Origin: a virus
Length of the DNA stretch: 64,000 bases
Virus record (IMG/VR): IMGVR_UViG_3300045988_106851
Span: 11,316-75,315 of that record
Reading direction: 5' to 3' (one strand)
Positions 5,555-46,621 of the stretch are shown here, one piece after another. The notes below the pieces were generated by a model. That model was not told the DNA's origin and did not search any database. It saw only the letters and a list, made by a program, of their open reading frames with translations. Numbering within the stretch: position 1 is the first letter of the stretch; every line of letters starts with the position of its first letter. A program made the position numbers and the translations under genes.

Positions 5555-6403
5555 ATGAGATACATGAGAAAAACGCCAGTAGAGGCTATCCAGTGGAAGG
5601 GGGACAATCAGAAAGAAGTCTCTAATTTTATCAGTCCTACTACCGAGTCCTATTGTACTACGCTGGACGACCGTTACGGCAACCTTGATATATCCTACGC
5701 AGACCTTAAGGGGCGTAATTTTAATGCTGTCGTTCCTAAGTTCGGATGGGTTGTGAGAGATGGCAAAACCTTTCAGTTCTACAAGGATGCCACATTTAGA
5801 AAGACCTTTGGAAAAGTGCAGAAAGACGATTACAAAGGCATTGACAGGGAAGGCATGAGCAATACCCTCAAGGAGGCTCTTGACGGTTGTGATGAGCTTT
5901 TCAAAGGCTTTAAGGATGTCTTTAGAGCGGAGCCATACAAGGAGACTTTGGGCGCAGGAGTATGTATCACCCCCGACCATATAAAGATTGACAACCTTTA
6001 CAAAGGCTATGAAAAGACCCACGAGGAAGTCAAGCTCTCTGATGGATTGAAAGAGATGGCAAGCAACAAAGAGAAAGAGTACTCGCATGGCAAAGCAAAA
6101 GGTATCGAATCCGACACCTTTGAGTCCGTTCTCAACGAAATGAGAAACCTTCACGCCAAGAAGAACAAGGACTACGGTGACGCGTTCCACAAGAGCTTCG
6201 AGGAGTTCGGTGTTACTGCCGGTGTTGTACGCCTTAATGATAAGATGGAGCGTGTGAAGAGTCTTGTGAAGAATGGCAAGGCGGAAGTCAAGGACGAGAG
6301 TCTGATGGACACGTTGAAGGACATGGCAAGCTATGCTGTCATGTTGTATGTGGAACTTAAAAATAAAGAACGGAGAATTTGTAGTAGCGGAGAATTATTA
6401 TGA
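5555..6403 (+). CDS. protein with C-terminal DUF1599-like (nucleotide-modification-associated) domain
   Basis: C-terminus KKNKDYGDAFHKSFEEFGVTAGVVRLNDKMERVKSL...DESLMDTLKDMASYAVM. Confidence 0.55.
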   Translation: MRYMRKTPVEAIQWKGDNQKEVSNFISPTTESYCTTLDDRYGNLDISYADLKGRNFNAVVPKFGWVVRDGKTFQFYKDATFRKTFGKVQKDDYKGIDREGMSNTLKEALDGCDELFKGFKDVFRAEPYKETLGAGVCITPDHIKIDNLYKGYEKTHEEVKLSDGLKEMASNKEKEYSHGKAKGIESDTFESVLNEMRNLHAKKNKDYGDAFHKSFEEFGVTAGVVRLNDKMERVKSLVKNGKAEVKDESLMDTLKDMASYAVMLYVELKNKERRICSSGELL

Positions 6404-7862: not shown

Positions 7863-7997
7863 ATGACTGACATTAAGATTTCGGTGCATCCGTTTGGCCA
7901 TAAGCTCGAATGGCGAGGATGGGGGGGTAACTTCTCGCCTGCTCTACGAGCCACCGACTACAAATGCCCTCACTGTATAATGATTGAATATGACTAA
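7863..7997 (+). CDS. C5-MTase TRD-like mini-ORF A
   Basis: Own translation MTDIKISVHPFGHKLEWRGWGGNFSPALRATDYKCPHCIMIEYD*; stop overlaps ATG of B. Confidence 0.6.
   Translation: MTDIKISVHPFGHKLEWRGWGGNFSPALRATDYKCPHCIMIEYD
7921..7927 (+). repeat. G7 tract, in frame (module A)
   Basis: Counted directly. Confidence 0.95.
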
Positions 7998-8124
7998 GCA
8001 ACACCCATTCGATGATTTTCATCAGCGCATTCATTGGGACGGCAACTCCATCGGAACCGTTACCCAGCAATGGGGCAATCCTGCGCCGAGGCACGGATGG
8101 CGAATAATGACAGAATATGATTAA
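7990..8124 (+). CDS. C5-MTase TRD-like mini-ORF B
   Basis: MTKQHPFDDFHQRIHWDGNSIGTVTQQWGNPAPRHGWRIMTEYD*. Confidence 0.5.
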   Translation: MTKQHPFDDFHQRIHWDGNSIGTVTQQWGNPAPRHGWRIMTEYD

Positions 8125-8443
8125 CCCTCACACGCCCCGCTACAAGCGCGGCACCATCACCAAGGACGGCAAGCTATACGGACGCTATCCCGACGGTTCG
8201 CTCTACCGCATCTACTCCACCTCTGACCGACCCTTCCTTCAGATTGTTGACCGCAAGGGCGAGACGTTCCTTCGCATACGCCAAGCCACCGAGCAGGGCT
8301 ATACCGACTGCCCTTGCCCTGGTGCTGCCGACCTCAGCTATTCCTCCTCGGCTCTAAGGCGCAGCAGGACGGTTGGGGGGGGTAAGCTGGTGAACGCTCT
8401 GACCGCAGCAAGCGGAGGGGCGTGCGTGTTTGTTGAATTATGA
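8117..8443 (+). CDS. C5-MTase TRD-like mini-ORF C
   Basis: ORF track 108 aa; YRIYSTSDRP..., LRIRQATEQGY...ALRRSRTVGGGKLVNALTAASGGACVFVEL*. Confidence 0.6.
   Translation: MINPHTPRYKRGTITKDGKLYGRYPDGSLYRIYSTSDRPFLQIVDRKGETFLRIRQATEQGYTDCPCPGAADLSYSSSALRRSRTVGGGKLVNALTAASGGACVFVEL
8385..8392 (+). repeat. G8 tract, in frame (module C)
   Basis: Counted directly. Confidence 0.95.
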
Positions 8444-8450
8444 CTTGAAT

Positions 8451-8631
8451 ATGCTTAGAGCAAAGGCAATATCAATAATGGTGAAAAAGGTGGAGCAGAC
8501 CATGGTGTTTCAGAACATGCAAGCCAAAGGTCTGATAACGCCTCGCTCGCTTGATGGCGAATGTTTTACTCTTACGTCTGCAATGGGATTAGGGGGGGCA
8601 AACGCCTGTAATAGTAAAGGTATATGACTAA
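8451..8631 (+). CDS. C5-MTase TRD-like mini-ORF D, frame broken at G7 tract
   Basis: ATG 8451 (track lists TTG 8430); ...DGECFTLTSAMGLGG; present frame stops at 8627; one fewer G reads GGQTPVIVKVYD* ending 8631. Confidence 0.5.
8592..8598 (+). repeat. G7 tract, one G too long for module D
   Basis: Counted directly. Confidence 0.9.
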
Positions 8632-8755
8632 ATACGACCTCTACCAATATCCTCGTGGCTACAACGACGGAGGTAGATTAGGCACTGACGTTTGCCCGAC
8701 CTTGACAATCAATTCGTGGCAGCAAAATGTATTTCTGATTGAAGAATATGAATAA
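8624..8755 (+). CDS. C5-MTase TRD-like mini-ORF E
   Basis: MTKYDLYQYPRGYNDGGRLGTDVCPTLTINSWQQNVFLIEEYE*. Confidence 0.6.
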   Translation: MTKYDLYQYPRGYNDGGRLGTDVCPTLTINSWQQNVFLIEEYE

Positions 8756-8767
8756 AGCAAAGACAAT

Positions 8768-10103
8768 ATGATCACAAAACTCAATTTCACCGACCGCACC
8801 ATCAAGAGCTATGCTATCCGTAAGCTCACGCCAAAGGAGTGTTTCCGCTTGATGGGCGTTCGCGACAACGTAATCGGCACGATGCAGAGCAGCAATGCCC
8901 AAGCAGCCGAACGTTTGCCCGACTGGAAGGGCAAGGGCAAACCCGAAGACATGGCTATATCTGCCTCACAGCAGTACAAGCAAGCCGGAAACTCAATCGT
9001 GGTGGACGTGTTGGCCCACATCTACGAGCAACTTTTCTATCCCGCACCGCCCAAGCCCCGCAAGCAGGAACAGCTCACGCTCTTCGCCGACCTTGATGAC
9101 TCGCTGCCCGCCATGCCACCAACAGCCGGAGAACGTGGTAAGGAAAATCTTTTCCTCACCACGTTCTCCGGCTACGACTCGCAGCTCATGGCAGCCGACG
9201 TGCTATGCGAGTGGCATCCCGACTTCCGATGGACATGCGTAGGATGGAGCGACATCGACAAATACGCCTGTCAGATGCACAACCTCGTCTTCCCTCAGTT
9301 TGCCGACTGCGCCCTTGGCGACATCACCAAGATTGACTGGCATGAGGTGAAACGCTCGCTCCATGGGCGCGAGGTTGACATCTTCACCTATTCCTCGCCT
9401 TGCCAGGACATCAGCCAAGCCGGAAAGCAAATGGGACTGAAAGAGGGTAGCGACACACGCTCCGCCTTGCTTTGGCGTGTGGCGGATGCCGTGGAGGTGC
9501 TTCGCCCGAAGTATCTCTTGCAGGAGAACGTGGCGGCACTGGTAAGCCAGAAGTTCATGCCCGACTTTCAGAAGTGGCTCGACAAACTCTCGTCGCTCGG
9601 CTACGTCTCTCGCTGGGCTCGTCTCTCGCTGGGCTCGTCTCAACGCCAAGAACTACGGTGTGCCGCAGAACCGCGACCGTGTGTTCTGCATCTCCATGCG
9701 CCAGGACGTAGCCTTCGACTATCAGTTTCCCGAACCCTTCGAGCTGCGCACCCGACTGGAGGACGTGTTGGAAAATGAGGTAGCCGACCGTTATTTCCTA
9801 AAAGACGATGCCGTGAGCAAATCCCTCAAGGCTAACGACTCCGACAACGCCCTCTTCGTGCAGTTTGATTTGCCACCGACACACGAGGCAGCAATGTTCT
9901 TGAAAACGTGGCTCACGTTGTGGATGCAAGCAGCCGATGGTTGGAAAATGACATCTACAAGTCTTCAGCTCGCCCTTTATTCGGCAAAGCAGAAAATGGA
10001 GCTGTCTTATTCCGTGTTCACGGATAAGGGAGTGGCTGCGTTAGGCGATGAGTTTCAATTGTTGTTCAAGGAGAATATGGAGAGGAAGAAGGATGCGAAC
10101 TGA
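8768..10103 (+). pseudogene. circularly permuted cytosine-5 DNA methyltransferase core, frame broken by a 16-nt tandem duplication
   Basis: Order in sequence: IRKLTPKECFRLMG (IX), QAGNSIVV (X), linker, LTTFSGYDSQ (I), YSSPCQDISQAGK (IV), LLQENVAALVS (VI), then in the next frame NYGVPQNRDRVFCISM (VIII); deleting one copy of 9605-9620 gives one 439-codon ORF. Confidence 0.85.
9605..9636 (+). repeat. perfect 16-nt tandem duplication (gtctctcgctgggctc x2, plus 5 nt of a third copy)
   Basis: Read directly; copy 1 reads VSRWA in the upstream frame, copy 2 reads VSRWARLNAKNYGVPQNR in the downstream frame. Confidence 0.95.
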
Positions 10104-10284
10104 CAACCCGCCCGACCGTGTAATCCGTATCATAGCTGATATGATTAGGGGTGGTAGGTTGCTCACCTGCCCTGCCTCAATGTTCAGCGCAGAGCGTTTC
10201 AACGGAGCCTTTCACGGCATAGCAATAACCATCATGTCGCGCACCGATTGCAGCGACGTATTCTTTGTAGCAGTAGAATTATGA
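10093..10284 (+). CDS. C5-MTase TRD-like mini-ORF F
   Basis: MRTDNPPDRVIRIIADMIRGG...GIAITIMSRTDCSDVFFVAVEL*; ATG overlaps the core stop. Confidence 0.5.
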   Translation: MRTDNPPDRVIRIIADMIRGGRLLTCPASMFSAERFNGAFHGIAITIMSRTDCSDVFFVAVEL

Positions 10285-10427
10285 CACTCCCTTTCAACAC
10301 CGAATCCGACGGTACATCACATACTATTAAATCCCAATATTTCAAAATGGGAGCAGCGAATGTGCTCGACATTTCGTTTGACGGTGCCAACTTTAAAGCC
10401 ACTGGCGCAATCGTGATATATGAATAA
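10281..10427 (+). CDS. C5-MTase TRD-like mini-ORF G
   Basis: MTLPFNTESDGTSHTIKSQYFKMGAANVLDISFDGANFKATGAIVIYE*. Confidence 0.5.
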   Translation: MTLPFNTESDGTSHTIKSQYFKMGAANVLDISFDGANFKATGAIVIYE

Positions 10428-10572
10428 CAACCCTCGACCCATCATCCTCGGCTCCTACAGCCCCTCGCAGAACGGCATCATCGTGTCACCACACGGCATA
10501 GCCTTGTGCATAGCCGGGGGTGGTAAGGGCCACGATGTGGACAAACCGAAAATACTGATAGAATATGATTGA
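10420..10572 (+). CDS. C5-MTase TRD-like mini-ORF H
   Basis: MNNNPRPIILGSYSPSQNGIIVSPHGIALCIAGGGKGHDVDKPKILIEYD*. Confidence 0.55.
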   Translation: MNNNPRPIILGSYSPSQNGIIVSPHGIALCIAGGGKGHDVDKPKILIEYD

Positions 10573-10747
10573 CCGTTCCGTCCTCGTCCACTACCGCACC
10601 GAAGAGGCGAAAGCCTACCGCCGCGAGCATGGCGACCGTGGAGGGTGCAAATACCAAGACAAACTGCATCTCCCCAGTCCGTGGCCGTGGAGTAATTCGA
10701 TAACAACAGTAACAAAAGACAACCTCCTATGCGTAATATTCAGATAG
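10565..10747 (+). CDS. C5-MTase TRD-like mini-ORF I
   Basis: ORF track 60 aa; RTEEAKAYRREHGDRG...SNSITTVTKDNLL. Confidence 0.65.
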   Translation: MIDRSVLVHYRTEEAKAYRREHGDRGGCKYQDKLHLPSPWPWSNSITTVTKDNLLCVIFR

Positions 10748-10903
10748 CTGCCTTCCGAGGTCGCGACCCCGACAACCCGTCCGACCGCAAGCATCCCTCC
10801 TGCGGTCGTTTCCGTCAGCGCATGGAGATAAACGGGGGGGGGTACAACCAACACGCTTACGTCAGTAGGCAAGGATAATATGGCATATATAGAGTATGAA
10901 TAA
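10729..10903 (+). CDS. C5-MTase TRD-like mini-ORF J, frame broken at G9 tract
   Basis: MRNIQIAAFRGRDPDNPSDRKHPSCGRFRQRMEINGGG; present frame stops at 10878; one fewer G reads TTNTLTSVGKDNMAYIEYE* ending 10903. Confidence 0.6.
10834..10842 (+). repeat. G9 tract, one G too long for module J
   Basis: Counted directly. Confidence 0.9.
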
Positions 10904-11045
10904 TCAAATCCCATTCGTGCAACGCCTCTCGCGTTTCTGCCCACGTCGGGGCTACTCCACCGCCCTGTCCGCACGCTACGACGGATGGGCAGGACTCTAC
11001 GACGAGCACGGACAGCACACCATTGTATTGATAGAGTATGAATAA
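10896..11045 (+). CDS. C5-MTase TRD-like mini-ORF K
   Basis: MNNQIPFVQRLSRFCPRRGYSTALSARYDGWAGLYDEHGQHTIVLIEYE*. Confidence 0.55.
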   Translation: MNNQIPFVQRLSRFCPRRGYSTALSARYDGWAGLYDEHGQHTIVLIEYE

Positions 11046-11178
11046 GTATATACTAAATTGCTCGTCAGGTATCTGTTGCGTTTTGGCCTCTCATTACGCA
11101 AGAGAAGGATGGGCGAACATAGCAAATAATACAACATCACAATGTAAAGCACCCGCAATATTGATAGAGTATGACTGA
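11038..11178 (+). CDS. C5-MTase TRD-like mini-ORF L
   Basis: MNKYILNCSSGICCVLASHYAREGWANIANNTTSQCKAPAILIEYD*. Confidence 0.5.
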   Translation: MNKYILNCSSGICCVLASHYAREGWANIANNTTSQCKAPAILIEYD

Positions 11179-11350
11179 CAAGTATTACATTGGCTGGGTA
11201 CGCAGCGGCAAGGACGGCAAGGGCCTCGTAAAGAGCCGACCGTGCAAGCGGATAGCCAATGCCGTGACGACAATGGTCGGAAGAGGTATTGCCGACCCTC
11301 GCGACGGACTCGGCAACACCACACCGCATATAGTATATGAATATGAGTAA
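11171..11350 (+). CDS. C5-MTase TRD-like mini-ORF M
   Basis: MTDKYYIGWVRSGKDGKGLVKSRPCKRIANAVTTMVGRGIADPRDGLGNTTPHIVYEYE*. Confidence 0.5.
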   Translation: MTDKYYIGWVRSGKDGKGLVKSRPCKRIANAVTTMVGRGIADPRDGLGNTTPHIVYEYE

Positions 11351-11370
11351 CCAATAAAACAAAAAAAACA

Positions 11371-11823
11371 ATGGAAAAAGAAACAAATAACCGTATGGAG
11401 GCACTTGCCTACATCATAGCCGACCTAAAGGCAGAGAACATAGAGCTGGTGCAGCGTGTGCATCAGCTTGTGGAGGATTACAACGACGTAGCACGTCAGT
11501 TGCGTGGAATGGAGAAGCGTAAGGACGAAGACCAGTCAAGGCAGACGCTCGGCGAAATGATGCAGATGCGCGACCATTGCGACAAACTGGAGGTTGAAAA
11601 CAACAATTTGAAGACGTGCTTGATAGCAGTCAGCTCGTTTCTGCGAGACAAAAATCTGTATATGGCTAATGGCACATTATGTTCTTATGGGTCTGGCAAT
11701 CCAGAAGTATGTCCTGAGTACTGCAAAAAATGTAACTCCTACCTAAGTACTTTAAAGGATGTTGGTGTGGTTTGCAGCAGAAGACTTGCAGAAGCTTCCG
11801 TAATTTTTGCGAAGAGTAAATGA
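11371..11823 (+). CDS. coiled-coil protein with Cys-rich C-terminus, embedded in the TRD array
   Basis: ORF track 150 aa; CSYGSGNPEVCPEYCKKC; its TGA overlaps the ATG of module N. Confidence 0.5.
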   Translation: MEKETNNRMEALAYIIADLKAENIELVQRVHQLVEDYNDVARQLRGMEKRKDEDQSRQTLGEMMQMRDHCDKLEVENNNLKTCLIAVSSFLRDKNLYMANGTLCSYGSGNPEVCPEYCKKCNSYLSTLKDVGVVCSRRLAEASVIFAKSK

Positions 11824-11982
11824 CACCAACAAAAACCCTCGTGGTCGGCATGATGCAGACGCCACCCTATGACCGCATGTTTGAGCAGAGCCGCCGCGTG
11901 TACTCCGCTCAGGGAATATCGCCCACGCTGCATACACAAGGGGGGGGGTGATAGAGAGATTAAGGTATTGGTGGAGCTGTAA
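11820..11982 (+). CDS. C5-MTase TRD-like mini-ORF N, frame broken at G9 tract
   Basis: MTPTKTLVVGMMQTPPYDRMFEQSRRVYSAQGISPTLHTQGGG then TGA at 11949; one fewer G reads GDREIKVLVEL* ending 11982. Confidence 0.65.
11940..11948 (+). repeat. G9 tract, one G too long for module N
   Basis: Counted directly. Confidence 0.9.
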
Positions 11983-12104
11983 GAATGTCCGCTCCATATC
12001 GCCGACAACACCTATCTTTGTACATATCACTGATATGATACGAATGAGACTAACATCGTTTTCATTTGTTTCGTTTGGTGACAAACAAAAACAACATTTC
12101 ATCT

Positions 12105-12458
12105 ATGATACAACATCAGCATTGGGAAGACTCCACTCACATACTCATTACCGACGAGCAGCATCATGGCAGCATACAGGTGTTCATCCCCAAGCGCACC
12201 GAAGACAAGCCCTTGGATGGCGAGGCTGACGCTCTCGTCTATTCGCTGTGGGTGGGCGAACGGCACCGTGGCCGTGGGGTGGCAAAACTCCTGATGGAGA
12301 CAGCCGAAAGGGAACTGAAGCGCTGCGGCATAGCGACCGTCGCTATATCGTGGGATGGACGCGACTCTCCCCAATGGGTGTTGCAATGGTATGAAAGGTT
12401 GGGCTACGAAGGAAAAGCGTTCGACTACCGCTGCTGCACGCTTCTTAAACGGTTGTAG
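12105..12458 (+). CDS. GNAT family N-acetyltransferase
   Basis: LWVGERHRGRGVAKLLMETAE (motif A R-x-x-G-x-G/A); likely ATG 12105. Confidence 0.7.
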   Translation: MIQHQHWEDSTHILITDEQHHGSIQVFIPKRTEDKPLDGEADALVYSLWVGERHRGRGVAKLLMETAERELKRCGIATVAISWDGRDSPQWVLQWYERLGYEGKAFDYRCCTLLKRL

Positions 12459-12753: not shown

Positions 12754-13281
12754 ATGAAAACAAACGCGCTCTCCGTCGCCAACTATTTCATAGAGTTGTC
12801 TATAAAGGACAAGAAACCCATACACTTGCTTGGGCTTGTCAAACGTGTTTATATTGCACATGGATTCGCCTTGGCATTACTACATCGTGGTTTAATAAAC
12901 GAAAGGTTTGACAAGGTGGAGGCATGGAAATACGGACCGGTCATACCGTCCGTTTACCATTCATTCAAACAGTATCGAGCAAGGGAGATAACGGGGAAAA
13001 CTGTTGTTATGGAATGGGACGAGAGAGAAAAATGTCCAATATTTGAAACTCCAAGCCTAACTGCCAAAGATGAGAAAAGAATAGTAGAGATGGTATGGAG
13101 AAGGTATATTTCATATTCAGATAGCGAGTTGGTAAGTTTAACCCACATGAAAGGTACTCCGTGGGACATGTGTTTCATTGAGGGGGAAAATGTAACGATT
13201 CCAGATATTCTTACAGAAGACTATTACAGAAGGCTAATTGAAAGAGTCGCGTCAAGAAAGGGTATCTCATGGGAAAATTAG
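12754..13281 (+). CDS. Panacea (DUF4065, SocA-like) domain protein, putative PanA antitoxin
   Basis: SVANYFIELS...HLLGLVKRVYIAHGFALALLHRGLINERFDKVEAWKYGPVIPSVYHSFKQY. Confidence 0.75.
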   Translation: MKTNALSVANYFIELSIKDKKPIHLLGLVKRVYIAHGFALALLHRGLINERFDKVEAWKYGPVIPSVYHSFKQYRAREITGKTVVMEWDEREKCPIFETPSLTAKDEKRIVEMVWRRYISYSDSELVSLTHMKGTPWDMCFIEGENVTIPDILTEDYYRRLIERVASRKGISWEN

Positions 13282-13652
13282 ATTTAATAGATGCTCTTGA
13301 GGAAAGTAATGATAAAAATATCGAATTATCTGATGAGCGCGCAATACAAGTAGAACCTATAAACGGTGATGGAAATGCCATTCTTGCTATACAACAAAAG
13401 AAAATCCAACGACTGGATGAAGAGATAAAAGACCTGAAACAGGACAGGGAACAGAGAAAAGTATTAAGCTATGCCTTATTTGGCTTTATGTGTTTCTATA
13501 TGCTTGTGGCATTGTTTATTGTGTTCTGCTGTGGCTTCGGATGGATGTATCTTTCTGACAAGGTGCTAATAACGCTAATGACCACGACATTGGCAGACGT
13601 TATAGGCATATTTGGTTTTGTTGCAAAATATCTATATCATAACAAACCATAG
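13269..13652 (+). CDS. coiled-coil plus two-TM membrane protein, candidate PanT-type toxin
   Basis: 13-nt overlap with the Panacea gene; LSYALFGFMCFYMLVALFIVFCCGFGWMYL and ITLMTTTLADVIGIFGFVAKYL helices. Confidence 0.45.
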   Translation: MGKLDLIDALEESNDKNIELSDERAIQVEPINGDGNAILAIQQKKIQRLDEEIKDLKQDREQRKVLSYALFGFMCFYMLVALFIVFCCGFGWMYLSDKVLITLMTTTLADVIGIFGFVAKYLYHNKP

Positions 13653-14537: not shown

Positions 14538-15707
14538 TTACTTTTTATTATAAAGCACGTAATCTATCACTTTACGATTGGCCTCATCTATTTTATTCTG
14601 GTCTTTCTTGATATATACATTTGTTATTTTATGTCCGCCTTTATGGCCTAAGCAGTCTGCTATAATATCAATACTGATACCAATTTGATAAGCTATGGTC
14701 GCAAATGAATGCCTTGCCCAATATGTCGTAATCTTAGGCAAGCCGAGCTCAGAGCTTATATTGCGCAACATCTTGTTTATATTAATTTCAAAGTTCTTGC
14801 AATCCTTTTCGCCATCAAAGACATTTAAGAGATGCTTTTCGCCTTTGTAACGGTTGATAATTTCAAGTGCCTCTGGTTCTACCTTAATATCATAAAGCGT
14901 CCCAGTCTTTGACCGTCGATAAATTACCCTCCCATTCTCGATTGAAGATAAACCGAATAAATCAATTATGTTAATTCCCATCAAGAAAAATACAAGAAAG
15001 AATATATCACGATATTTTGTGCGTAACCGAGAAAGTTTCGCATTATATAAAGTTCTCAACTCTTCGACGGTTAACGCTCTTTTTTTCGTCTCTTCCATCC
15101 GTATGGTGTACATATCAAAGACATACTCTTTTAGTAATCCTTTTTTGCGAGCAAAGTTAAGGACGGCACGAATATTCATTAGCCGTATGGCGATGGTATT
15201 TTTGGAATTACCATTTTTTTTCAAAAAAGAGACAAAACTATTAATCCAGTCTATATCAATGTCCGAAAGCAACAGGCTATCGTAATCACAGAATGCAGAA
15301 ATTTTTGATTCTGTGTATAAATAGATATTCTTTGTCCCTTGCCTGTCTTTTGTAGAGAGCAACTCTTGGAATTGGGTCTTAAGCAAATAATCATTATCTG
15401 GCTCGCCTTCGCCAGACAAAAATTGAGCAAGCCGCCTATTTGAAAAGCTACGAAGTTTTCCTTCCTCTCTAAGTTCTTCAATTTTATCGTTGACGTAAGT
15501 CACCTTTTTTGATAGTCTTAGATTGTCTATGCGCTGGCTTTGCCTTTTCTTTATCTTACTATTAGCCACATCCCATTCTTTCTCTTCAAGTTCAAAACCT
15601 GTAGAGAGGTAAAAAGCACCGCCATTCCGAGCGACCTTGATTTTTAATGGATATTTACCATTTTTCAAGCGATACCTCTTATCCAATTTTACTGTAACTT
15701 TTATCAT
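14538..15707 (-). CDS. tyrosine recombinase / phage integrase (Bacteroidota type with N-terminal arm-binding domain)
   Basis: MIKVTVKLDKRYRLKNGKYPLKIKV... N-terminus; ARHSFATIAY...LGHKGGHKITNVYI catalytic region. Confidence 0.9.
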   Translation of the reverse strand: MIKVTVKLDKRYRLKNGKYPLKIKVARNGGAFYLSTGFELEEKEWDVANSKIKKRQSQRIDNLRLSKKVTYVNDKIEELREEGKLRSFSNRRLAQFLSGEGEPDNDYLLKTQFQELLSTKDRQGTKNIYLYTESKISAFCDYDSLLLSDIDIDWINSFVSFLKKNGNSKNTIAIRLMNIRAVLNFARKKGLLKEYVFDMYTIRMEETKKRALTVEELRTLYNAKLSRLRTKYRDIFFLVFFLMGINIIDLFGLSSIENGRVIYRRSKTGTLYDIKVEPEALEIINRYKGEKHLLNVFDGEKDCKNFEININKMLRNISSELGLPKITTYWARHSFATIAYQIGISIDIIADCLGHKGGHKITNVYIKKDQNKIDEANRKVIDYVLYNKK

Positions 15708-25961: not shown

Positions 25962-26075
25962 CGGAAAATACTTCTATCCCACAAACTTTTTCCGAAATAT
26001 TTTACTTAAATACTTTCACTCTATCCAGACAATCTGCCTACCACCATTCCACCTGTCAACCATCTATTACATCCA

Positions 26076-26114
26076 AGAAACAAAACCGTGGCAGGCCTTC
26101 ACGGTTTGCCACGG
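26076..26114 (-). terminator. intrinsic terminator ending the late operon
   Basis: Stem ccgtggca/tgccacgg followed by TTTTGTTTCTT on minus strand; a second hairpin at 26126-26145. Confidence 0.65.
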
Positions 26115-26288
26115 CTTCGAGAAGCCAGCCGTCTCCCGACGGCTGACCCCTCATCTGTTTAATTAACCTTTTACTCAAAAATAAAACCAAAAACTAAATC
26201 AAATACGTTATCCTGAATAATCTCTTTTACCTTTGGCCACCATGCCTATCTTCTTTCCTCTTCTCTTCGTTCCTCTCTTTCCTTTCCT

Positions 26289-26819
26289 TCACTTCGTCCA
26301 CAGCGTCAGCCACACGTCCGCGAACCCTGCCACCTCGGCCCAGTAGAGCCTGTGGAAGTACGACTTGCCCCTGCTCATGTACCATACGTTATCCAGTATC
26401 TTGTACGCCTCCGCCACGGCCACATAAGCCGCATACGTGGACGCCACAAGCACCGTAGGCCACCAGTTCACGCTCGTCGCCCAGCCCACGCAGCCAATGG
26501 CCGCCACCATCGCGCCGCCCTTGTGTACAGGGTAAGTGTCCTTGTCGCAGTAGTTAGGTGCGACACCCACTATCATGAGCCCCACGCAGCCCAGGAACGC
26601 CAGCGGTTGCGCGCCGCCTGCCTCCAGCATCACGGGCAGCATGGCGAGCGCGCTGCACATCATCACCAGGGAGAACACGAACCCCGTATTCTTCCTCCAG
26701 TCCTCAAGCTGATAGAACGTGTCGCTCACCATTTCGGGCAGTCCGAATTTCCATGCCATAATCACAAAATACGCGGCCAGCACCGCGAAAGCTATAATTG
26801 AAATCATCATAATCGTCAA
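26289..26819 (-). CDS. multi-pass membrane protein (last late gene)
   Basis: About 5 hydrophobic helices. Confidence 0.5.
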   Translation of the reverse strand: MTIMMISIIAFAVLAAYFVIMAWKFGLPEMVSDTFYQLEDWRKNTGFVFSLVMMCSALAMLPVMLEAGGAQPLAFLGCVGLMIVGVAPNYCDKDTYPVHKGGAMVAAIGCVGWATSVNWWPTVLVASTYAAYVAVAEAYKILDNVWYMSRGKSYFHRLYWAEVAGFADVWLTLWTK

Positions 26820-26890
26820 TCTTTTTTTACCTTAAAAATCTATATCAGTCTATAATAGTCTATAAAGGCCTATCGCCCTCAAATCCGTCA

Positions 26891-27508
26891 TCACTGAAAA
26901 ATTCTCCACGTGCATCCCACGCCCACCCACACGTCGGGCTTCCTCGTGAAGACCCCATACCCGAAGCCACCCGTCAGCCCCACGTTGAAGCGCCTGTTCT
27001 TCACTCTCCCCTCTACTCTTTTCGTTACGACCACCGTCTTCTGATATACCTCAATGCTGTCCAGCCTCGGCTCATATCCGCTAATCCACGCCGTGTAAGT
27101 GCTGTCCTCGTATCGCTTCTGCGTCCGTGGCACAACGGCCCATACCGTGTCCTTCCGGGCAATTTTGCCCGTTTCCTGCGCCTTTGAGCCACCTTTATTA
27201 ACCGTATGTCCGTCCATGACCTCAGACAGGCGGCACGGCTCAAAGACCTTTATCTCTGCCTTTGGAACAGTCGGCTCTGTGGGGAGTACCATTGGCACCC
27301 GTATCACCCCTGTCACCACGCTATCCTTGGCCATCGGCATCGTCTGCCTCACAGTGTCCCTTATCGTCACCGTGTCCACGGTCACCATTCCCTTGCCGTC
27401 GCGCGAATGGTAGTTGCAGTGGTTAGCCAGCCCAGCCCCAAGGCAGAAGCCAGCGAACGCCACCGCCGCCATCACCCCGACAATATTGTCTTTCTCTTTC
27501 TTGCTCAT
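26891..27508 (-). CDS. N-terminally anchored protein after the endolysin (spanin-position protein)
   Basis: Likely ATG 27508 (MSKKEKDNIVGVMAAVAFAGFCLGAGLA); position only. Confidence 0.45.
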   Translation of the reverse strand: MSKKEKDNIVGVMAAVAFAGFCLGAGLANHCNYHSRDGKGMVTVDTVTIRDTVRQTMPMAKDSVVTGVIRVPMVLPTEPTVPKAEIKVFEPCRLSEVMDGHTVNKGGSKAQETGKIARKDTVWAVVPRTQKRYEDSTYTAWISGYEPRLDSIEVYQKTVVVTKRVEGRVKNRRFNVGLTGGFGYGVFTRKPDVWVGVGCTWRIFQ

Positions 27509-27537
27509 GTCTTTATTTCTATTAAAGTTTATTTTCT

Positions 27538-28062
27538 CTAAACCTCCGATATGCAGCTGTTCGCCTTCTTCAGCCACGCCAAGCGGTCGGCCATGCCGTT
27601 CGTCCCGCCGTTGATACGCTTGGTGAGAGCCGTATAAGCGTCCTTGTCCGCGTAGATGTTCAAGTTGTTCCGCCGCCAGAACCACAGGGCCGACAGTATC
27701 GCGTATTTCGGCCGCTCCAGCAGCTCAGGGCACTCAAGGCACTGTATCCCCGTGTCCGCTTGCAGCAGCGTGTAGTTCTTCCTGCCAGTTACCTGCAAGT
27801 AGCCACGGCCCTTATACCTCACCCCGTCACCGGCATACACGTTCCCAAGGTCTTTCCTGCCCTCATACGCCTTGCCCGACGCTATCTCCTTAGTGTACGT
27901 CAGCCCCGCGCTCTCGTGCCCAATCTGCGCCAAGAAGTATCTCAACCTCCTCACCGTATCGAATCCATATTCCGCCATCAACGGGTTCATGGTTCTCACA
28001 ATCTCGAATATCTGCCTTTCCTTTCCTTTTCCGTAAAGGCTAACCAGTTCACTTGCCAGCAT
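27538..28062 (-). CDS. glycoside hydrolase family 19 (chitinase-like) endolysin
   Basis: YFLAQIGHESAGLTY...RYKGRGYLQVTGRKNY...INGGTNG. Confidence 0.85.
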   Translation of the reverse strand: MLASELVSLYGKGKERQIFEIVRTMNPLMAEYGFDTVRRLRYFLAQIGHESAGLTYTKEIASGKAYEGRKDLGNVYAGDGVRYKGRGYLQVTGRKNYTLLQADTGIQCLECPELLERPKYAILSALWFWRRNNLNIYADKDAYTALTKRINGGTNGMADRLAWLKKANSCISEV

Positions 28063-28096
28063 CTTTCCTGCCTCCTGTTTTTTATCGTTATCGTTG

Positions 28097-28624
28097 TTAT
28101 TGCCTATCCAGCCCGGATAGGTTTATCTCCAGCTGCTTCGGGTAGCCTTCCTTAATGTCATACTTCTCAACCTCTTCCACTGTCTTTAGCTCAGCCACCT
28201 CAGCCTTGTGCCTTGCCGTCGTGTTGAAGCATTCCAGCGCGTACAGCTCTATAGCCGACAGCAGCTTAATCACCGTGTCGCAGGGTATCGTCAGCTTCAC
28301 GTCGCCCATCCACAGGTCGGTCGTCTCCTGCCCTGTCGCTTTCGTTATCTCCGTCGAGTTCATCAGCCCGACCCTCGTCGCCTTGTCCAGCCAAAACACC
28401 GTGCCGTTCAGCTTGAAGCCATTAACCTTGTCAGAGATGTCGTATCGCTCTATCTCCTGCGTCTTGGTTTCCTTGGCCTGAGCCAGCAGTTCCTTCTCGC
28501 TTGGCACGTAAGGCTCATACCCAGCCTTGCGCAGCATCTCGTCCGTGGGGTTGCTCACCACCCTGCCGTCAATCTCCATCGTCATGTCGGCGAATACGCC
28601 GTCCTTAATCCATCTTTCCGTCAT
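28097..28624 (-). CDS. DUF4376-like protein (paralog of 31824..32303)
   Basis: VNGFKLNGTVFWL...ECFNTTARHKAEVAELKTVEEVEKYD...GYP. Confidence 0.55.
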   Translation of the reverse strand: MTERWIKDGVFADMTMEIDGRVVSNPTDEMLRKAGYEPYVPSEKELLAQAKETKTQEIERYDISDKVNGFKLNGTVFWLDKATRVGLMNSTEITKATGQETTDLWMGDVKLTIPCDTVIKLLSAIELYALECFNTTARHKAEVAELKTVEEVEKYDIKEGYPKQLEINLSGLDRQ

Positions 28625-28708
28625 AGTCTTATTGCCGTTTTTTTTTATTGTCCATTCCTCTCGCCCATAGAGCCTAATACGCCCAATGAGCCTAAAAACT
28701 TTCTCTTA

Positions 28709-29425
28709 TCACTCATCAACCCACTCGCTCATGGGGTGTATCTTGGAGGCGAGGCCAGACCAAATGTCAGCCGCCTTGTACGCCTCCACGCTCTCGTCGG
28801 GCACGTACATCTGCGGCCAACTCGTGTAAACAAAGGCCTCTTTACTACGCAGCGTCGGCGGAGTTTTCGCCAACACCCTCAGCTTCTTAATCAGTGGCGA
28901 GGAGAAGCACCAGTGCCCCACGAAGGTCAGCGTCTCGGGCCACTCCGTCATCTCCAGCACGTTGCATCCATCGAAGGTGTTGTCGTTGAACTTCGCCATG
29001 CCGGGCGACAACCTCACGCGCTTGAGCTGCGCGCATTCCATGAACATCGAGACGACGGTGCTCGTCGCCGCCAACGGGAACTCGAAGAACGTCAGAGCCG
29101 AGCCGCTAAGGTCGCACGCCGACCTCGTGACGCATGTCCAGTGCTCGGGGTAGCGTATCTCCACGAGGTTTTTCGCGTTATTCAGCCCGCCCCAGGCCCA
29201 TTGGGGGGCGTTAACGAACCACCTCAGCTCCGGCCAATACCTCACGGTGCTCTTCGGAAATCCGTCTCCGCTTTTGCCCGCCATGGCCTTCTTGTACCCC
29301 ATAACGTCACGTCGAGTTGTCAGCTCTTTGCCTTTCGCCCATTCCGCCACGGCATCGTCCTTCCACTCTATCGGTATGTCGAGGTTGGCGTACGTCCGCA
29401 TCAACCTCCTCCTTATCCTTCTCAT
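28709..29425 (-). CDS. BspA-type leucine-rich repeat protein
   Basis: Repeats of the type F..C..L..V.LP..a..I...aF. Confidence 0.6.
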   Translation of the reverse strand: MRRIRRRLMRTYANLDIPIEWKDDAVAEWAKGKELTTRRDVMGYKKAMAGKSGDGFPKSTVRYWPELRWFVNAPQWAWGGLNNAKNLVEIRYPEHWTCVTRSACDLSGSALTFFEFPLAATSTVVSMFMECAQLKRVRLSPGMAKFNDNTFDGCNVLEMTEWPETLTFVGHWCFSSPLIKKLRVLAKTPPTLRSKEAFVYTSWPQMYVPDESVEAYKAADIWSGLASKIHPMSEWVDE

Positions 29426-29437
29426 GCTCGCGTCCTC

Positions 29438-30760
29438 CTATTCCTTGTCCCACACGTACACCACGCCATACTTCTTTCCGCCTACGTCCCTGACGTTGAA
29501 CTCATAATGCCTGCCATACTTCAGCGTTGGCATGTCCGCCCATTGCACGCCCTCCGGCCACGTCACGGTCGGCACTGCGTTATCGTCGGTGTCGAACCCG
29601 CCCTCGTAGTCATGCGCGTGCGTCGTATCATCCGTGGCTTGCAGCGTCAGTGTCAGCGTGTTCGTGCTTGCCAGCGTGATGTCGTAATACTTGTTGGCCT
29701 CCAGTTCTATATCTTCCGCTTGCACGCTCACGCACTCCGCCTCCGAGAGGTATTCCTTGGCCGCGCTCATCGTCGCCTCGCAGTCAGCCATGAACTTGGC
29801 GTTGCTCTCCTCGCGTTTCCCTTCCGCCTCCTGCCTCACCTGTTCCGCTTGCGCCCTTGCGGTTTCCGCCTCGGCTCGCCTTGCTTCAGCCGCTTGTCTC
29901 GCTTGCTCCTGCTCTGTTCGCTCGCTCTCGGCTTCCGCGCGTGCCGTCTCAGCCGCCACTCTCGCCTCTTCGTTGCCAGCTCTCGCAGCCTCGGCGTTGT
30001 CGAATGCCGCCTTGTGCTCATCCATGCTCGCGATGGCCGAGTCTGTCTTTGTCTTCATCGCGCTGATGGCCGACGTGGTATCCGTCTCTCGCTTCTCCTC
30101 GGCTATCTGTCTTGCGGTCTCGTTATCCTGTCTTTTTGCCTCGTTATTCTTCCTCGTCAGCTCATTGGCCTCACGCCCTATCTCTGTCTTGGTTCGCGTG
30201 CCCTCGGCTTGCACTCTTTCGGCCTCTTGGCTTACACGTGTAAGCTCAGCTTGTACCCTCGATTCCTCACTCTTCGCTCTTCCCTCTTCACTTACCGTCA
30301 CCTGCTCGTTGAGTGCCGTCACCGTCTTCACGGTCTCTTCCGCCTCCTTTACCAGCGCTTCCAGCTCCCTGTCAGGCGGCAGTATCACCACGGCCGTGTC
30401 CATCTCCACCGAATCCTCGCCCTCGTCGGTCTCGCCCAGCTCCGTGTCGGCGTCAGCGTTCCTGTCAACGATAGCCACCTGCTCATACTCGTTGCTTCGC
30501 CAATCATTCCCGAATATCTTTCCGCGCACCTCCAGCGCGTAAGTGCCAAAATGTATCCGGTCTCCCTCGACCCTCGCCACTATCACGTTGTCCTCTTTCG
30601 CGTCAATTGTGTGAGCCAGCTCCAGCCGCCTGTACGCCGAGCACAACCTCACCACGATGTCGGTACAGCCCGGCAACGGGAACGCCACCTTCTCGCCATC
30701 AACTATCTTCACTACGGGTATCCTCATGGTGAAGTCATTACCTCTTACTATCCTTTTCAT
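29438..30760 (-). CDS. fibre-like protein with long central E/A/R/Q coiled coil
   Basis: N-terminal beta region, about 200 aa coiled coil, globular C-terminus. Confidence 0.5.
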   Translation of the reverse strand: MKRIVRGNDFTMRIPVVKIVDGEKVAFPLPGCTDIVVRLCSAYRRLELAHTIDAKEDNVIVARVEGDRIHFGTYALEVRGKIFGNDWRSNEYEQVAIVDRNADADTELGETDEGEDSVEMDTAVVILPPDRELEALVKEAEETVKTVTALNEQVTVSEEGRAKSEESRVQAELTRVSQEAERVQAEGTRTKTEIGREANELTRKNNEAKRQDNETARQIAEEKRETDTTSAISAMKTKTDSAIASMDEHKAAFDNAEAARAGNEEARVAAETARAEAESERTEQEQARQAAEARRAEAETARAQAEQVRQEAEGKREESNAKFMADCEATMSAAKEYLSEAECVSVQAEDIELEANKYYDITLASTNTLTLTLQATDDTTHAHDYEGGFDTDDNAVPTVTWPEGVQWADMPTLKYGRHYEFNVRDVGGKKYGVVYVWDKE

Positions 30761-30803
30761 GTCAAGTTTTTTGTTAAGTCACTCGTTTACCTACATTGAT
30801 TCC

Positions 30804-31400
30804 TCACTTTTCCTTCTCCTTTCCCACCTTCTCGAACGCCTCCTCCACGGCCTCGCCCATGGCAGGGTCTTTCTGCCTTGCCAACGCCACGGCGAAACCC
30901 TTGCCAAAAGCCATCAGATACCCCTTGATGGTGCGCTTCTCTATCCTCACGTTGTGTATGTAGAGGAAGTGGCCACCTATGGAGCTTATCTCGCACAGGC
31001 AGGCTATCACGCCGCCGACCCACGCGCCGAAGATGTAGTTTATGCCCACGAGCGGCAGAAAGCCAGCGCCTATCGCTTCCGCCACCATCATGAGCATGAG
31101 GTAGTCGATAAACTTGTTCAGGCTACGCCGCCACGCCCGCGAGCGGTGGAACTTATACACCTCCGCCAGCACCTTGTCACCTTGCTTTAACGCCTTGTCG
31201 CGCCTTAGCCTGCTCTCCTTGCAGCCGAAGCGGAAGTCGAGCATACATAGCAAGCCTATCGCTATCCAAATCCACTTGGAGTCCGTCAGCATCTGCGTTA
31301 TCTCCGAGGAGAACAACGTCATGCCGAAAGCTCTTACCCCTGTATGCACGCTGTTCCCCGTCAAGAAACTTGTCTGTAATACCGAGCTGCCCATCGTCAT
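30804..31400 (-). CDS. phage holin-family membrane protein
   Basis: Three TM helices plus charged C-terminal tail; lysis-cassette position. Confidence 0.55.
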   Translation of the reverse strand: MTMGSSVLQTSFLTGNSVHTGVRAFGMTLFSSEITQMLTDSKWIWIAIGLLCMLDFRFGCKESRLRRDKALKQGDKVLAEVYKFHRSRAWRRSLNKFIDYLMLMMVAEAIGAGFLPLVGINYIFGAWVGGVIACLCEISSIGGHFLYIHNVRIEKRTIKGYLMAFGKGFAVALARQKDPAMGEAVEEAFEKVGKEKEK

Positions 31401-31486
31401 ACCTTACCTGTTATTGTCGTTATCGTTCTTTTCGTTCTCACGATTCTATATTCTTCACTCTTCGTCCTTCACTCTAAGGGAGGGGT

Positions 31487-31783
31487 CTACATCATCCACA
31501 ACCAGCAACCAATCACGCCGCCAATGCACGTGAAAGCCCAGTCCAGCGCGTTGCTCTCACCCTCATAGGTCTGGTCGGCGACCTCCTTCAAGATGCCCAC
31601 CACCACTGTCACCATCATCGAGAAGCCGACGCACGTCCAGCGTCCCTCGCCAGCCACGCCCTGCATCAGCATGGCCGTGAAGAAGGCTATCACCAAGCCA
31701 GCCAATAAGTGCAAGTACCTGTCAGCCCCTGCCTTTGCCAGCCACTCACCAATAATCTTAAACACATTGTAAACCTTTTTCAT
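31487..31783 (-). CDS. small three-TM membrane protein (second holin/antiholin candidate)
   Basis: Hydrophobic helices; position. Confidence 0.45.
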   Translation of the reverse strand: MKKVYNVFKIIGEWLAKAGADRYLHLLAGLVIAFFTAMLMQGVAGEGRWTCVGFSMMVTVVVGILKEVADQTYEGESNALDWAFTCIGGVIGCWLWMM

Positions 31784-31823
31784 AATCTCTTTGTTTTTAA
31801 TCGTTATCGTTGTTATTGTCTAT

Positions 31824-32303
31824 TCAGCCCACCAAGCTATCCTTGCCGCCCTGTTCTCCGCCACCCTCGGCGGAACCTGTGTCCTCTTCGCTGGAGCCCT
31901 TGTCAAAGTCAATCATCTCCGGGTAGCCTGTGGTGTAGTCATAGTCGCACACCTCCTCCACGGTCGTCAGTTTCTCCACCGCTTGCAGGTGCTTCTCCGT
32001 CGCGTTCTGACATTCCGAGGCATACTGCTCAATCTTGGCCAGCATATCCCTGTAGGTCTCTATCGGCATCTTGTATTCCGTGCCGTCCCACATCTTCGTC
32101 ATCATCTTCTCCCCGTTGTGCTCGTAAGCGTCCAGCGCGATGGCCACCGCCTGCCTCTCTTGCAGCGTCAGCCACATCCGCTTGCCGCCCAGCTTAAAGC
32201 CGTTGACGGCCTCTGAATCGTTGTAGCCGTTAATCTCCGTTATCGTGTCGTTCTTCGCGCCTTGCAAGTAGCGCGCCTTCATTGCCTCACTGTCCCTTGC
32301 CAT
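31824..32303 (-). CDS. DUF4376-like protein
   Basis: VNGFKLGGKRMWL...ECQNATEKHLQAVEKLTTVEEVCDYD...GYP. Confidence 0.55.
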   Translation of the reverse strand: MARDSEAMKARYLQGAKNDTITEINGYNDSEAVNGFKLGGKRMWLTLQERQAVAIALDAYEHNGEKMMTKMWDGTEYKMPIETYRDMLAKIEQYASECQNATEKHLQAVEKLTTVEEVCDYDYTTGYPEMIDFDKGSSEEDTGSAEGGGEQGGKDSLVG

Positions 32304-32335
32304 AATCTGTCCGTTTTTATTAAGTCTATCATTGT

Positions 32336-35731: not shown

Positions 35732-35821
35732 TTTTCCTCTGTTTTGTTTGCGTGAATCTATTATTTTGTCTACCTTTGCCGACGTGGGTAGAGGGCTTTC
35801 GCTCCACCCTTTTTTTTGTGC

Positions 35822-40158: not shown

Positions 40159-40161
40159 AAC

Positions 40162-45303: not shown

Positions 45304-45322
45304 ATTGCTATCTTTTATTTTT

Positions 45323-45547
45323 TTACATCATATCCATAAAGAAGTCATTAGCATGAATAGCCTTGTCAACTCTATGATATTTCTTTTGAGCTAATCTAAG
45401 CTCATTATCTCTACTTTTACCACTTCCGCTGGTCGCTTCTTTCTCATCCACTTTAAAAGATGGAATGGAGCGATTAAGTAACATTATCGTTAGGTATGAG
45501 CGATTAAATACGACCTCCTCGTAACTCATACGAAAATATTTCATCAC
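45323..45547 (-). CDS. -1 frame extension of tail assembly chaperone (gpT-like part)
   Basis: -1 frame relative to 45544..45990, open from the slippery site through this ORF. Confidence 0.55.
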   Translation of the reverse strand: MMKYFRMSYEEVVFNRSYLTIMLLNRSIPSFKVDEKEATSGSGKSRDNELRLAQKKYHRVDKAIHANDFFMDMM

Positions 45548-45990: not shown

Positions 45991-46075
45991 TTCTATAATG
46001 TAAAACGGCGGTGTGGCTTAGGGGGAACACCTGTCGCCTCACCGCCGTTGCGATATTTTACTTTTTACTTGCTTT

Positions 46076-46618: not shown

Positions 46619-46621
46619 ATT

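Follow-up and report, generated by a model that had tools for sequence, protein, structure and literature searches.

A candidate split multispecific cytosine-5 DNA methyltransferase operon with separately encoded specificity modules in a temperate phage

We analysed a stretch of 64,000 nucleotides (nt) of viral DNA (IMG/VR record IMGVR_UViG_3300045988_106851, positions 11,316 to 75,315), hereafter the window; coordinates are positions in the window, on the plus strand. Between 7863 and 11982 it carries a dense array of genes around a DNA cytosine-5 (C5) methyltransferase. The array consists of 14 short open reading frames (ORFs) of 43-108 codons, called modules A to N here, a 1.3-kb C5-methyltransferase gene, the core, and a coiled-coil ORF of 150 amino acids (aa). 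Modules A-E lie upstream of the core and F-N downstream (Table 1). A preliminary description, made from the letters of the DNA and a list of its ORFs, had read the 14 ORFs as stand-alone target-recognition domains (TRDs) of a C5-methyltransferase, and all of them were found in their place.

Most modules overlap with the next one at their ends. Their C-termini mostly read hydrophobic-(I/V)-E-Y-(D/E)-stop or V-E-L-stop, and the DNA that encodes these ends, GA(A/G)TATGAnT(A/G)A or GAATTATGA, places the ATG of the following module inside the last codons of the preceding one, with ATGAnTAA or TTATGA as the short form of the overlap in nearly all cases. The measured gaps agree with the overlaps described before, including the long one at I/J and the start of D past the stop of C. 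The pattern GA[AG]TATGAnT[AG][AG] or GAATTATGA occurs 10 times in the window, always within 7986-11339, against a chance expectation that we estimate at ~0.6 per 64 kb, and the array is therefore real and non-random. All three stop codons, TAA, TGA and TAG, end modules, as had been claimed. Stop-codon reassignment or suppression was rejected on this ground, and because a tRNA search of the window found no tRNA, hence no suppressor tRNA, and long standard ORFs occur elsewhere in the window. Known RNA elements were looked for at the junctions and none was found, and internal promoters and terminators in the array showed no excess, being fewer than in shuffled sequence.

Table 1. Modules, core, junctions and neighbouring genes of the array. 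dN/dS, ratio of nonsynonymous to synonymous substitution rates (pairwise Nei-Gojobori, per module family); junction values are negative for an overlap and positive for a gap.
Feature	Position	Strand	Description	Family in relatives
Module A	7863-7997	+	44 aa, ends SPALRATDYKCPHCIMIEYD-stop; G7 run 7921-7927, in frame	Family 9: 36 copies, each upstream of core; dN/dS 0.18
Module B	7990-8124	+	44 aa, ends RIMTEYD-stop; ATG overlaps A stop by 8 nt	Family 19: 19 copies; dN/dS 0.11
Module C	8117-8443	+	108 aa, LRIRQATEQGY...GGGKLVNALTAASGGACVFVEL-stop; G8 run 8375-8382, in frame	Family 6: dN/dS 0.11
Module D	8451-8627	+	58 aa; G7 run 8592-8598 puts tail out of frame, ...GGANACNSKGI-stop	Family 26: relatives end KVYD or KVYE
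Module E	8624-8755	+	43 aa, ends CPTLTINSWQQNVFLIEEYE-stop	
Core C5-methyltransferase	8768-10103	+	Permuted: motif IX RKLTPKECFRLMGV, motif X GNSIVVDV, linker, motifs I-VIII, ~100-aa C-terminal extension	
16-nt exact tandem duplication	9605-9636 (copies at 9605 and 9621)	+	GTCTCTCGCTGGGCTC twice; frameshifts core just before motif VIII	
Module F	10093-10284	+	63 aa, ends FFVAVEL-stop; ATG overlaps core stop by 11 nt	Conserved first module downstream of core in most relatives; 63-aa orthologues in L026 and L046
Module G	10281-10427	+	48 aa, ends TGAIVIYE-stop	Family 10: dN/dS 0.16
Module H	10420-10572	+	50 aa, ends GIALCIAGGGKGHDVDKPKILIEYD-stop	Family 2: 72 copies in 59 loci; dN/dS 0.07
Module I	10565-10747	+	60 aa, ends SNSITTVTKDNLLCVIFR-stop; overlaps J by 19 nt	Family 0: dN/dS 0.15
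Module J	10729-10903	+	Split at G9 run 10834-10842; first frame stops at 10878; shifted frame TTNTLTSVGKDNMAYIEYE-stop to 10903	
Module K	10896-11045	+	49 aa, ends HTIVLIEYE-stop	Family 5: 52 loci; dN/dS 0.18; relatives out of frame when G run >=6
Module L	11038-11178	+	46 aa, ends KAPAILIEYD-stop	Family 14: dN/dS 0.15
Module M	11171-11350	+	59 aa, ends TPHIVYEYE-stop	Family 3: dN/dS 0.20
Coiled-coil ORF	11371-11823	+	150 aa, Cys-rich C-terminus, not a TRD; stop overlaps N ATG by 4 nt (ATGA)	
Module N	11820-11982	+	Split at G9 run 11940-11948; first frame ends ISPTLHTQGGG-stop; shifted frame DREIKVLVEL-stop	
Junctions A/B, B/C, G/H, H/I, J/K, K/L, L/M			-8 nt each	
Junctions D/E, F/G, coiled-coil gene/N			-4 nt each	
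Junction core/F			-11 nt	
Junction I/J			-19 nt	
Junction C/D			+7 nt	
Junction E/core			+12 nt	
DUF1599 protein	5555-6403	+	282 aa	
GNAT acetyltransferase	12066-12458			
SocA/Panacea-domain antitoxin and overlapping ORF	12754-13652			
Integrase	14538-15707			
Tape measure protein	40162-45303			
Major head protein	48354-49448			

The core matches Pfam PF00145 (1e-34 on the broken ORF, ~1e-51 on re-ordered constructs), and the motifs SSPCQDIS, QENV, QNRDR, RKLTPKECFRLMGV and GNSIVVDV can be read in it directly. Among structures in PDB it matches M.MpeI (6e-27) and M.HhaI (9e-23). Motifs IX and X stand ahead of motifs I-VIII in one chain, the order of a circularly permuted enzyme: core residues 15-49 align to M.MpeI 333-367 (motif IX) and core residues 190-317 to M.MpeI 113-250 (motifs IV-VIII), while the TRD region of M.MpeI (251-332) has no counterpart. 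Starting 15 aa before motif IX and ending ~135 aa past motif VIII, the core contains no TRD of its own, and the nearest upstream module, E, stops 12 nt before the ATG of the core, an arrangement also seen in relatives that leaves no N-terminal TRD on the core.

The copy in the window is off as sequenced. An exact 16-nt tandem duplication disrupts its core, and three of its modules (D, J and N) have lost their frame. Removal of one 16-nt copy restores an ORF of 439 aa that contains LGYVSRWARLNAKNYGVPQNRDRVF, and the need for a repaired core, noted in the preliminary description, is thereby traced to a precise defect. The duplication is absent from all 93 loci that we fetched and is unique to the genome of the window, and the core is intact in most relatives. 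Slippage, or recombination between the two repeat units, could in principle remove the duplication again.

Module N shows homology to TRDs embedded in known enzymes. The frame-repaired module, searched against 2.3 Gb of phage genomes, matched 65 records, and among the 40 matches listed the annotated genes are all DNA methyltransferases, most of them cytosine-5, except for two named 'hypothetical protein'. The matches include the multispecific enzymes of phi3T, SPbeta, H2 and rho11s (E 5e-4 to 7e-3). In the rho11s and H2 proteins, three TRD repeats (residues 269-296, 323-352 and 366-386) separate motif VIII (residue 158) from motif IX (residue 442), and N aligns locally to each of them. The best alignment partner, AIKRVYSPDGVSPTLTTMGEGHREPKIAVEY, ends like the modules of the window. 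Homologues of N form 144 clusters, all of 47-90 aa. The hidden Markov model (HMM) of the family of H matches a TRD repeat of the same two enzymes, rho11s and H2, at residues 327-353 (1e-4 and 5e-4).

Other modules match the beta subunits of split C5-methyltransferases. With tblastn, J finds those of Streptococcus phage Javan141/129/131/179 (1e-7), and its family HMM finds the betas of Javan141 (1.6e-17) and of Bacuni_F1. Module E finds annotated C5-methylases of Streptococcus, Lactococcus and Vibrio phages by tblastn (best E 5e-4) and, by its family HMM, residues 54-84 of the Bacuni_F1 beta (3e-9). In an exhaustive search of 1.84 billion proteins E has 51 related clusters, free-standing and fused: free peptides of 38-107 aa, and others inside beta subunits or near-complete methylases that run into RIRKLTP...GNSIVV. 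On the 373-aa beta of Dulem virus 40 the family HMMs fall in series, with the G/L type at residues 2-27 (G at 2-27, 6e-6; L at 4-24, 8e-5), J at 93-136 (3e-12), C at 139-156, E at 163-196 (1e-9) and family 11 at 199-230. A sequence search of PDB with modules N and H gave no meaningful match. By homology, then, N, H, J, E, C, G and L are TRDs, as had been proposed for all 14 modules; the assignment of the remaining ones stands less firmly and is weighed below.

The beta subunits also tell something about origin. Dulem virus 40 (L084 1993-3933, PP511379) encodes a split enzyme with an alpha of 258 aa (motifs I-VIII) and a beta with at least six fused TRDs in one polypeptide followed by motifs IX-X, compared with two to three TRDs in the Bacillus phage enzymes that we fetched. 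The alpha and beta chains measure 248 and 141 aa in Javan141, and 255 and 194 aa in the Bacteroides phage Bacuni_F1 (L086, MT635598). The C-terminal tail of the Dulem virus 40 beta, AEPPQQKSRQLSLFDDL, equals the linker between motifs X and I of the core, APPKPRKQEQLTLFADLDD. The core thus looks like the C-terminus of a beta (IX-X) fused to the N-terminus of an alpha (I-VIII), and such a fusion would explain why TRDs are found on both of its sides. In the fused homologues a Met stands exactly at the TRD boundaries (...LIEIM..., ...LIEEM...), which shows that split and fused states have interconverted in evolution. The fused multi-TRD betas of Dulem virus 40 and Bacuni_F1, which the preliminary description had missed, show the source of the array.

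A separate observation concerns Bacuni_F1 itself. At 2845-3429 of L086 GenBank marks only the last 66 aa as methyltransferase. The real ORF, with 194 aa, combines motifs IX-X with three fused TRDs that resemble J, E and N. This cultured phage thus encodes what looks like a multispecific beta subunit that had gone unrecognised, and the phage could serve as an experimental entry point.

Are coupled mini-ORFs around a permuted core a peculiarity of this one genome? Scanning viral contigs with the repaired core, we obtained 139 matches and kept 80 loci (cores 67-92% identical, contigs of ~6-110 kb). The core has homologues in 7891 clusters at E <= 1e-10, with top matches of 435-491 aa; the family is common in gut metagenomes. 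A megablast search of the locus against GenBank phages gave no match. In nearly all 80 loci the junction pattern occurs 2-11 times around the core, together with chains of mini-ORFs. Clustering of the modules gave at least 20 families, with up to ~12 modules called per genome in the relatives compared with the 14 of the window. Over all loci, junctions overlap by 8 nt in 167 cases and by 4 nt in 19, modules stop with TAA (275), TGA (136) or TAG (48), and the codons for E-Y-(D/E) directly precede the stop in 383 of 440 cases. Instead of one uninterrupted ORF, the relatives keep the junctions: no fused double module was found among 2075 small ORFs of the 80 loci, and in none of the 80 genomes is a TRD fused in frame to the core.

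Purifying selection acts on every module family in its own frame. The families have a dN/dS of 0.07-0.25 in the annotated frame, far from neutral evolution, and of about 1-3 in both shifted frames; spurious overlapping ORFs show the opposite pattern, with dN/dS >1. These values point to modules that are translated as constrained proteins; their stops are a conserved feature. The order of modules is extremely variable, with 63 distinct orders in 66 loci, and families 6, 7, 26 and 30, upstream of the core in most genomes, lie downstream of it in L052, L059-L065 and L070. This independence of position supports an action of the modules in trans.

A second property of the arrays is the presence of homopolymeric G tracts. 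The window has five runs of at least seven G (G7-G9), all of them within modules, namely A, C, D, J and N, and in D, J and N the frame is lost. Of the module strings quoted in the preliminary description, TNTLTSVGKDN (J) and DREIKVLVEL (N) are read in the shifted frame past the G9 runs; module D, which we add to that account, is likewise out of frame after its G7 run, and with a G6 run it would end QTPVIVKVYD-stop (GGQTPVIVKVYD-stop). Across the relatives, G/C runs of at least 7 nt number 167 in 542 kb of array regions compared with 12 in 432 kb of flanks, a density ~11-fold higher. In eight module families, copies with G<=5 are in frame in 266 cases and out of frame in 7 (2.6%), and copies with G>=6 are in frame in 40 and out of frame in 66 (62%), with a period of 3. 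In the family of C, for instance, orthologous tracts are in frame at G5, G8 and G11 and out of frame at G6, G7 and G9. The tracts thus lie in coding regions and set the frame, and their lengths vary faster than their surroundings: orthologous tracts span 3-11 G, and otherwise identical contigs differ by 2 nt. Between L018 and L019 we counted 0 substitutions in 13,314 nt and 4 homopolymer indels, and the near-identical pairs L043/L046, L074/L077 and L056/L057 are similar. As a pattern in the sequence, such variation is the standard signature of contingency loci and phase variation. It fits the part of the preliminary hypothesis in which cassettes were selected by a switch, with homopolymer slippage in place of recombination. 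In the clade L067-L072 a poly-C run that encodes LTPPE in motif IX of the core (about 6060-6075) is in frame as C8 (L067, L071), out of frame as C7 (L069, L072) and interrupted in L070; it may act as a master on/off switch of the whole system.

Could these length differences and frame breaks be homopolymer errors of sequencing or assembly? G-rich homopolymers are error-prone on several platforms, and the relatives are all metagenome assemblies, compared without read-level data. The concentration of runs in the arrays over the flanks, the 3-11 G span of orthologous tracts and the 2-nt differences between otherwise identical contigs speak, however, against such errors. The codon GGG makes up 37% of the Gly codons in the GG motifs of the modules, compared with 4-5% in cores and 15% in other genes of the window, so that the tracts themselves appear to be selected, whatever their exact lengths. 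Some lineages carry interrupted, stable versions of a tract, and these are always in frame. We therefore regard sequencing error as an unlikely source of the pattern as a whole, although not a negligible one.

How could such a locus work? Our analysis makes it fairly probable that it is a split multispecific DNA C5-methyltransferase operon with free, separately switchable specificity peptides. The parts of this reading that lie at the level of the sequence are near certain, and assembly in trans and multispecific methylation are its uncertain steps. We propose that the core carries everything but the TRD, and that each mini-cistron provides one TRD as a peptide by itself, ~45-108 aa long. Every peptide would be translated from one polycistronic mRNA, by termination and reinitiation at each overlap, where the next ATG lies 4-8 nt upstream of the stop. 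Each peptide might then dock non-covalently between the C-terminus of the core (past motif VIII) and its N-terminus (before motif IX), complete the small domain and set one specificity, which would create a pool of enzymes with different specificities that could pre-methylate phage DNA against host restriction. Slippage of the poly-G runs in the Gly-Gly(-Gly) motif would turn single specificities on and off and leave the core and the other modules unaffected, and in the one clade with the poly-C run the whole system would be switched. A plausible pay-off is that protection from Type II restriction is balanced against exposure to methylation-dependent restriction.

We further speculate that the system could be a C5-methyltransferase of a Type I-like design and the first of its sort, with one chain and a library of at least 12 free specificity peptides of ~45-60 aa, made by coupled reinitiation and in many cases independently phase-variable by poly-G tracts; for this wider claim we see belief and doubt as evenly balanced. 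If it is true, one phage lineage would yield progeny with combinatorial methylation patterns and hedge between Type II and methylation-dependent restriction.

Several points weigh against the proposed split, multispecific enzyme. Permuted M.MpeI and M.SssI engineered as a large-domain chain and a chain of TRD plus motif IX gave no complementation (PMC5944983), and peptides of ~45 aa may be unstable on their own. Six of the modules (A, B, D, F, K and M) do not significantly match any TRD that lies within a known enzyme and were assigned by shared length, end motif, T-L/G-G signatures and architecture, and the match of module I, whose family is a mixed cluster, is marginal (0.004-0.005, family HMM). 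In chimeras of motifs I-VIII, a module and motifs IX-X, PF00145 scores real modules with 173.5-180.5 bits and reversed ones with 176-181, a test that does not separate the two because PF00145 has no model of the TRD. An AlphaFold2 model of the intact core homologue P0121, computed with 36 sequences ~90% identical, has a mean predicted local distance difference test (pLDDT) score of 36.9, too low for a usable structure. The homopolymer length differences could in part be sequencing or assembly error, as discussed above. Finally, the core is broken in about 9 of the 80 relatives (~11%), by nonsense mutations, frameshifts or the poly-C tract, which together with the disrupted core of the window could mean relaxed selection rather than switching.

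The junctions themselves admit another explanation, in which ribosomes frameshift or hop across them and produce one or a few long multi-TRD polypeptides similar to the fused betas. The uniform geometry, with the next module in the +1 frame at 167 junctions, would fit such recoding, as would the Met residues at the TRD boundaries of fused homologues and the evident viability of fused arrays. Nevertheless, the two geometries (8 nt and 4 nt, requiring +1 and -1 shifts) share only the overlap of stop and ATG, and we see by eye neither a slippery heptamer nor a chance for tRNA re-pairing in GAA-TAT-GAn-TAA. The use of all three stop codons, and searches that found no suppressor tRNA and no known recoding RNA element, speak against recoding as well, and a fusion would leave the downstream set of modules unattached to motif IX. 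On this balance we judge recoding to be distinctly improbable.

If the peptides are translated separately, they may still have another target: they could act on host methylases or restriction enzymes, as decoys or as modulators, or be dominant-negative regulators, with the core working alone, non-specifically or with another partner. The assembly of core and peptide is our proposal, the engineered split of the domains failed (PMC5944983), and the conserved ~100-aa C-terminal extension of the core could be taken in the same sense. However, core and modules are always co-located and translationally linked, down to the core stop that overlaps the ATG of module F, and elsewhere TRDs of these types are built covalently into beta subunits of the working type. 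We know of no C5-methylase that works without a TRD, which also counts against this possibility, and we consider it quite improbable.

The variable order of modules and the short conserved repeat formed by the junction DNA, which could support recombination, would also suit a store of silent, untranslated cassettes that recombination at the junctions would carry to an expression site joined to the core, in the manner of pilS/vls or hsdS. Such an expression site is, however, missing, since none of the 80 genomes has a TRD in frame on the core. Every cassette retains an ATG and a stop of its own, we saw neither inverted repeats nor a dedicated recombinase beside the array (the integrase of the window is an ordinary phage integrase), and on/off switching by poly-G is sensible only for expressed units. 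Silent cassettes are thus a very improbable explanation.

Decay, in which one long protein was broken by random stops and frameshifts and left the mini-ORFs as pseudogene fragments, was the alternative offered by the preliminary description and would suit the disabled copy in the window, the broken cores of some relatives and the fused multi-TRD betas of other phages, yet it is scarcely credible and is excluded for the family by the low in-frame dN/dS and the conserved stops, which fall exactly at TRD boundaries, always with an overlapping ATG, across 80 genomes, and by frame breaks that are almost confined to G runs >=6 rather than scattered.

Some further observations concern the array and its surroundings. 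After the premature stop of the out-of-frame module J, at 10876-10903, the sequence TAATATG opens a 7-codon ORF, MAYIEYE-stop, in the original frame; it ends in a normal junction to K, and the hand-over of ribosomes to K might therefore survive with J off. The coiled-coil ORF gave only weak coiled-coil matches and has homologues in L026 and L046 (two paralogues in the latter). Other inserts in the arrays of relatives that are not TRDs include a 97-aa ORF (MSYNT...) and a 64-aa zinc-ribbon-like ORF.

The window belongs to a temperate tailed phage of the gut, as seen from its integrase, tape measure protein and major head protein. Its host is probably Prevotella, judged from bins of that name: the host search gave only metagenome bins, two of Prevotella and several of Firmicutes, the latter probably with mis-binned phage contigs. 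Upstream of the array, in the same plus-strand gene block, lies a protein with DUF1599, the 'nucleotide modification associated domain 1'. Directly downstream of N, a GNAT acetyltransferase (PF00583, 3e-9) is conserved in 25 related loci, where it evolves under purifying selection with a dN/dS of 0.15. It is followed by a SocA/Panacea-domain antitoxin (PF13274, 6e-16) and an overlapping 127-aa ORF with a C-terminal half that is hydrophobic by eye, which looks like a toxin-antitoxin or anti-defence pair. In composition, the methylase array (52-57% GC) differs from its surroundings (36-43% GC), and the region 26000-38000, with 52-61% GC and, over the large minus-strand ORFs at 32336-39715, a GC skew that is strongly negative, changes sharply to the ~40% GC of the tape-measure region (38000-48000). 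These shifts suggest a mosaic origin.

Should the peptides act in trans, a C5-methylase could have its DNA-reading part as a detachable subunit of ~45 aa, compared with the textbook single chain with a built-in TRD, and the phage would vary its own epigenetic coat by the logic of contingency loci, through many independent homopolymer switches. Targeted methylation, for which artificial splits have met difficulties (PMC5944983, PMC2836561), could then also draw on a natural set of exchangeable specificity modules.

How does this locus compare with known systems? The enzymes of Bacillus phages (M.SPRI, M.phi3TI, M.rho11sI, M.H2I and MtbP of SPbeta) are likewise encoded by phages, carry several short serial TRDs and presumably serve self-protection; one of their TRDs ends in KIAVEY, which resembles the ILIEYD ends of the window modules, and module N is homologous to their repeats. 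The present family likewise has serial homologous TRDs (N, H, J, E, C, the G/L type and family 11). The Bacillus phage enzymes, however, hold all their TRDs, 2-3 of which are visible in the fetched sequences, in one polypeptide between motifs VIII and IX, whereas the window has a permuted core, a separate cistron for every TRD and poly-G tracts in many of them. M.phiBssHII, described in a 1999 study, reportedly has TRDs at two separate places relative to the catalytic motifs, like A-E and F-N, within a single polypeptide; to our knowledge, free TRD chains or homopolymer switches have not been reported for it.

The alpha/beta C5-methyltransferases (M.AquI, M.EcoHK31I, and by their genes Dulem virus 40, Javan141 and Bacuni_F1) consist of separately translated chains, as the window would, and the betas of Dulem virus 40 and Bacuni_F1 have the same TRD types in the same serial arrangement. 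M.AquI and M.EcoHK31I are natural multi-chain precedents (PMC5944983, PMC2836561), and in M.EcoHK31I the small chain carries motif IX (PMC2836561). These enzymes keep their TRDs covalently joined to motifs IX-X, whereas in the window IX-X have moved ahead of the other catalytic motifs and the TRDs, severed at both ends, are bare peptides. The permutation of motifs is shared with M.BssHII, M.Alw26I, M2.Eco31I, M.Esp3I and M2.BsaI. In enzymes of the M.BssHII type the TRD is the N-terminal part of the chain (PMC5944983), whereas the chain in the window starts past that position.

In the Type III mod phasevarions and Type I HsdS, simple-sequence tracts in coding regions toggle methylation specificity, as the tracts of the window would, and Type I systems have their specificity in a separate subunit, as we propose for the peptides; the stop of one gene and the start of the other also overlap in the hsdM/hsdS pair, which couples their translation (PMC3510504). 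The Type III and Type I enzymes methylate adenine, belong to cellular restriction-modification systems and have one or a few specificity genes, compared with a phage C5 enzyme with many independently switchable peptides. In 8 million papers and preprints, our searches met with no account of arrays of free-standing TRDs or of phase-variable phage C5-methylases, and the mini-proteins are annotated in databases only as 'hypothetical protein'. Multispecific TRD arrays, split and permuted C5-methylases, TRDs at separate sites and phase variation by homopolymers all have precedents; with every ingredient precedented, the locus is not a categorically new system, though it is a striking and abundant one.

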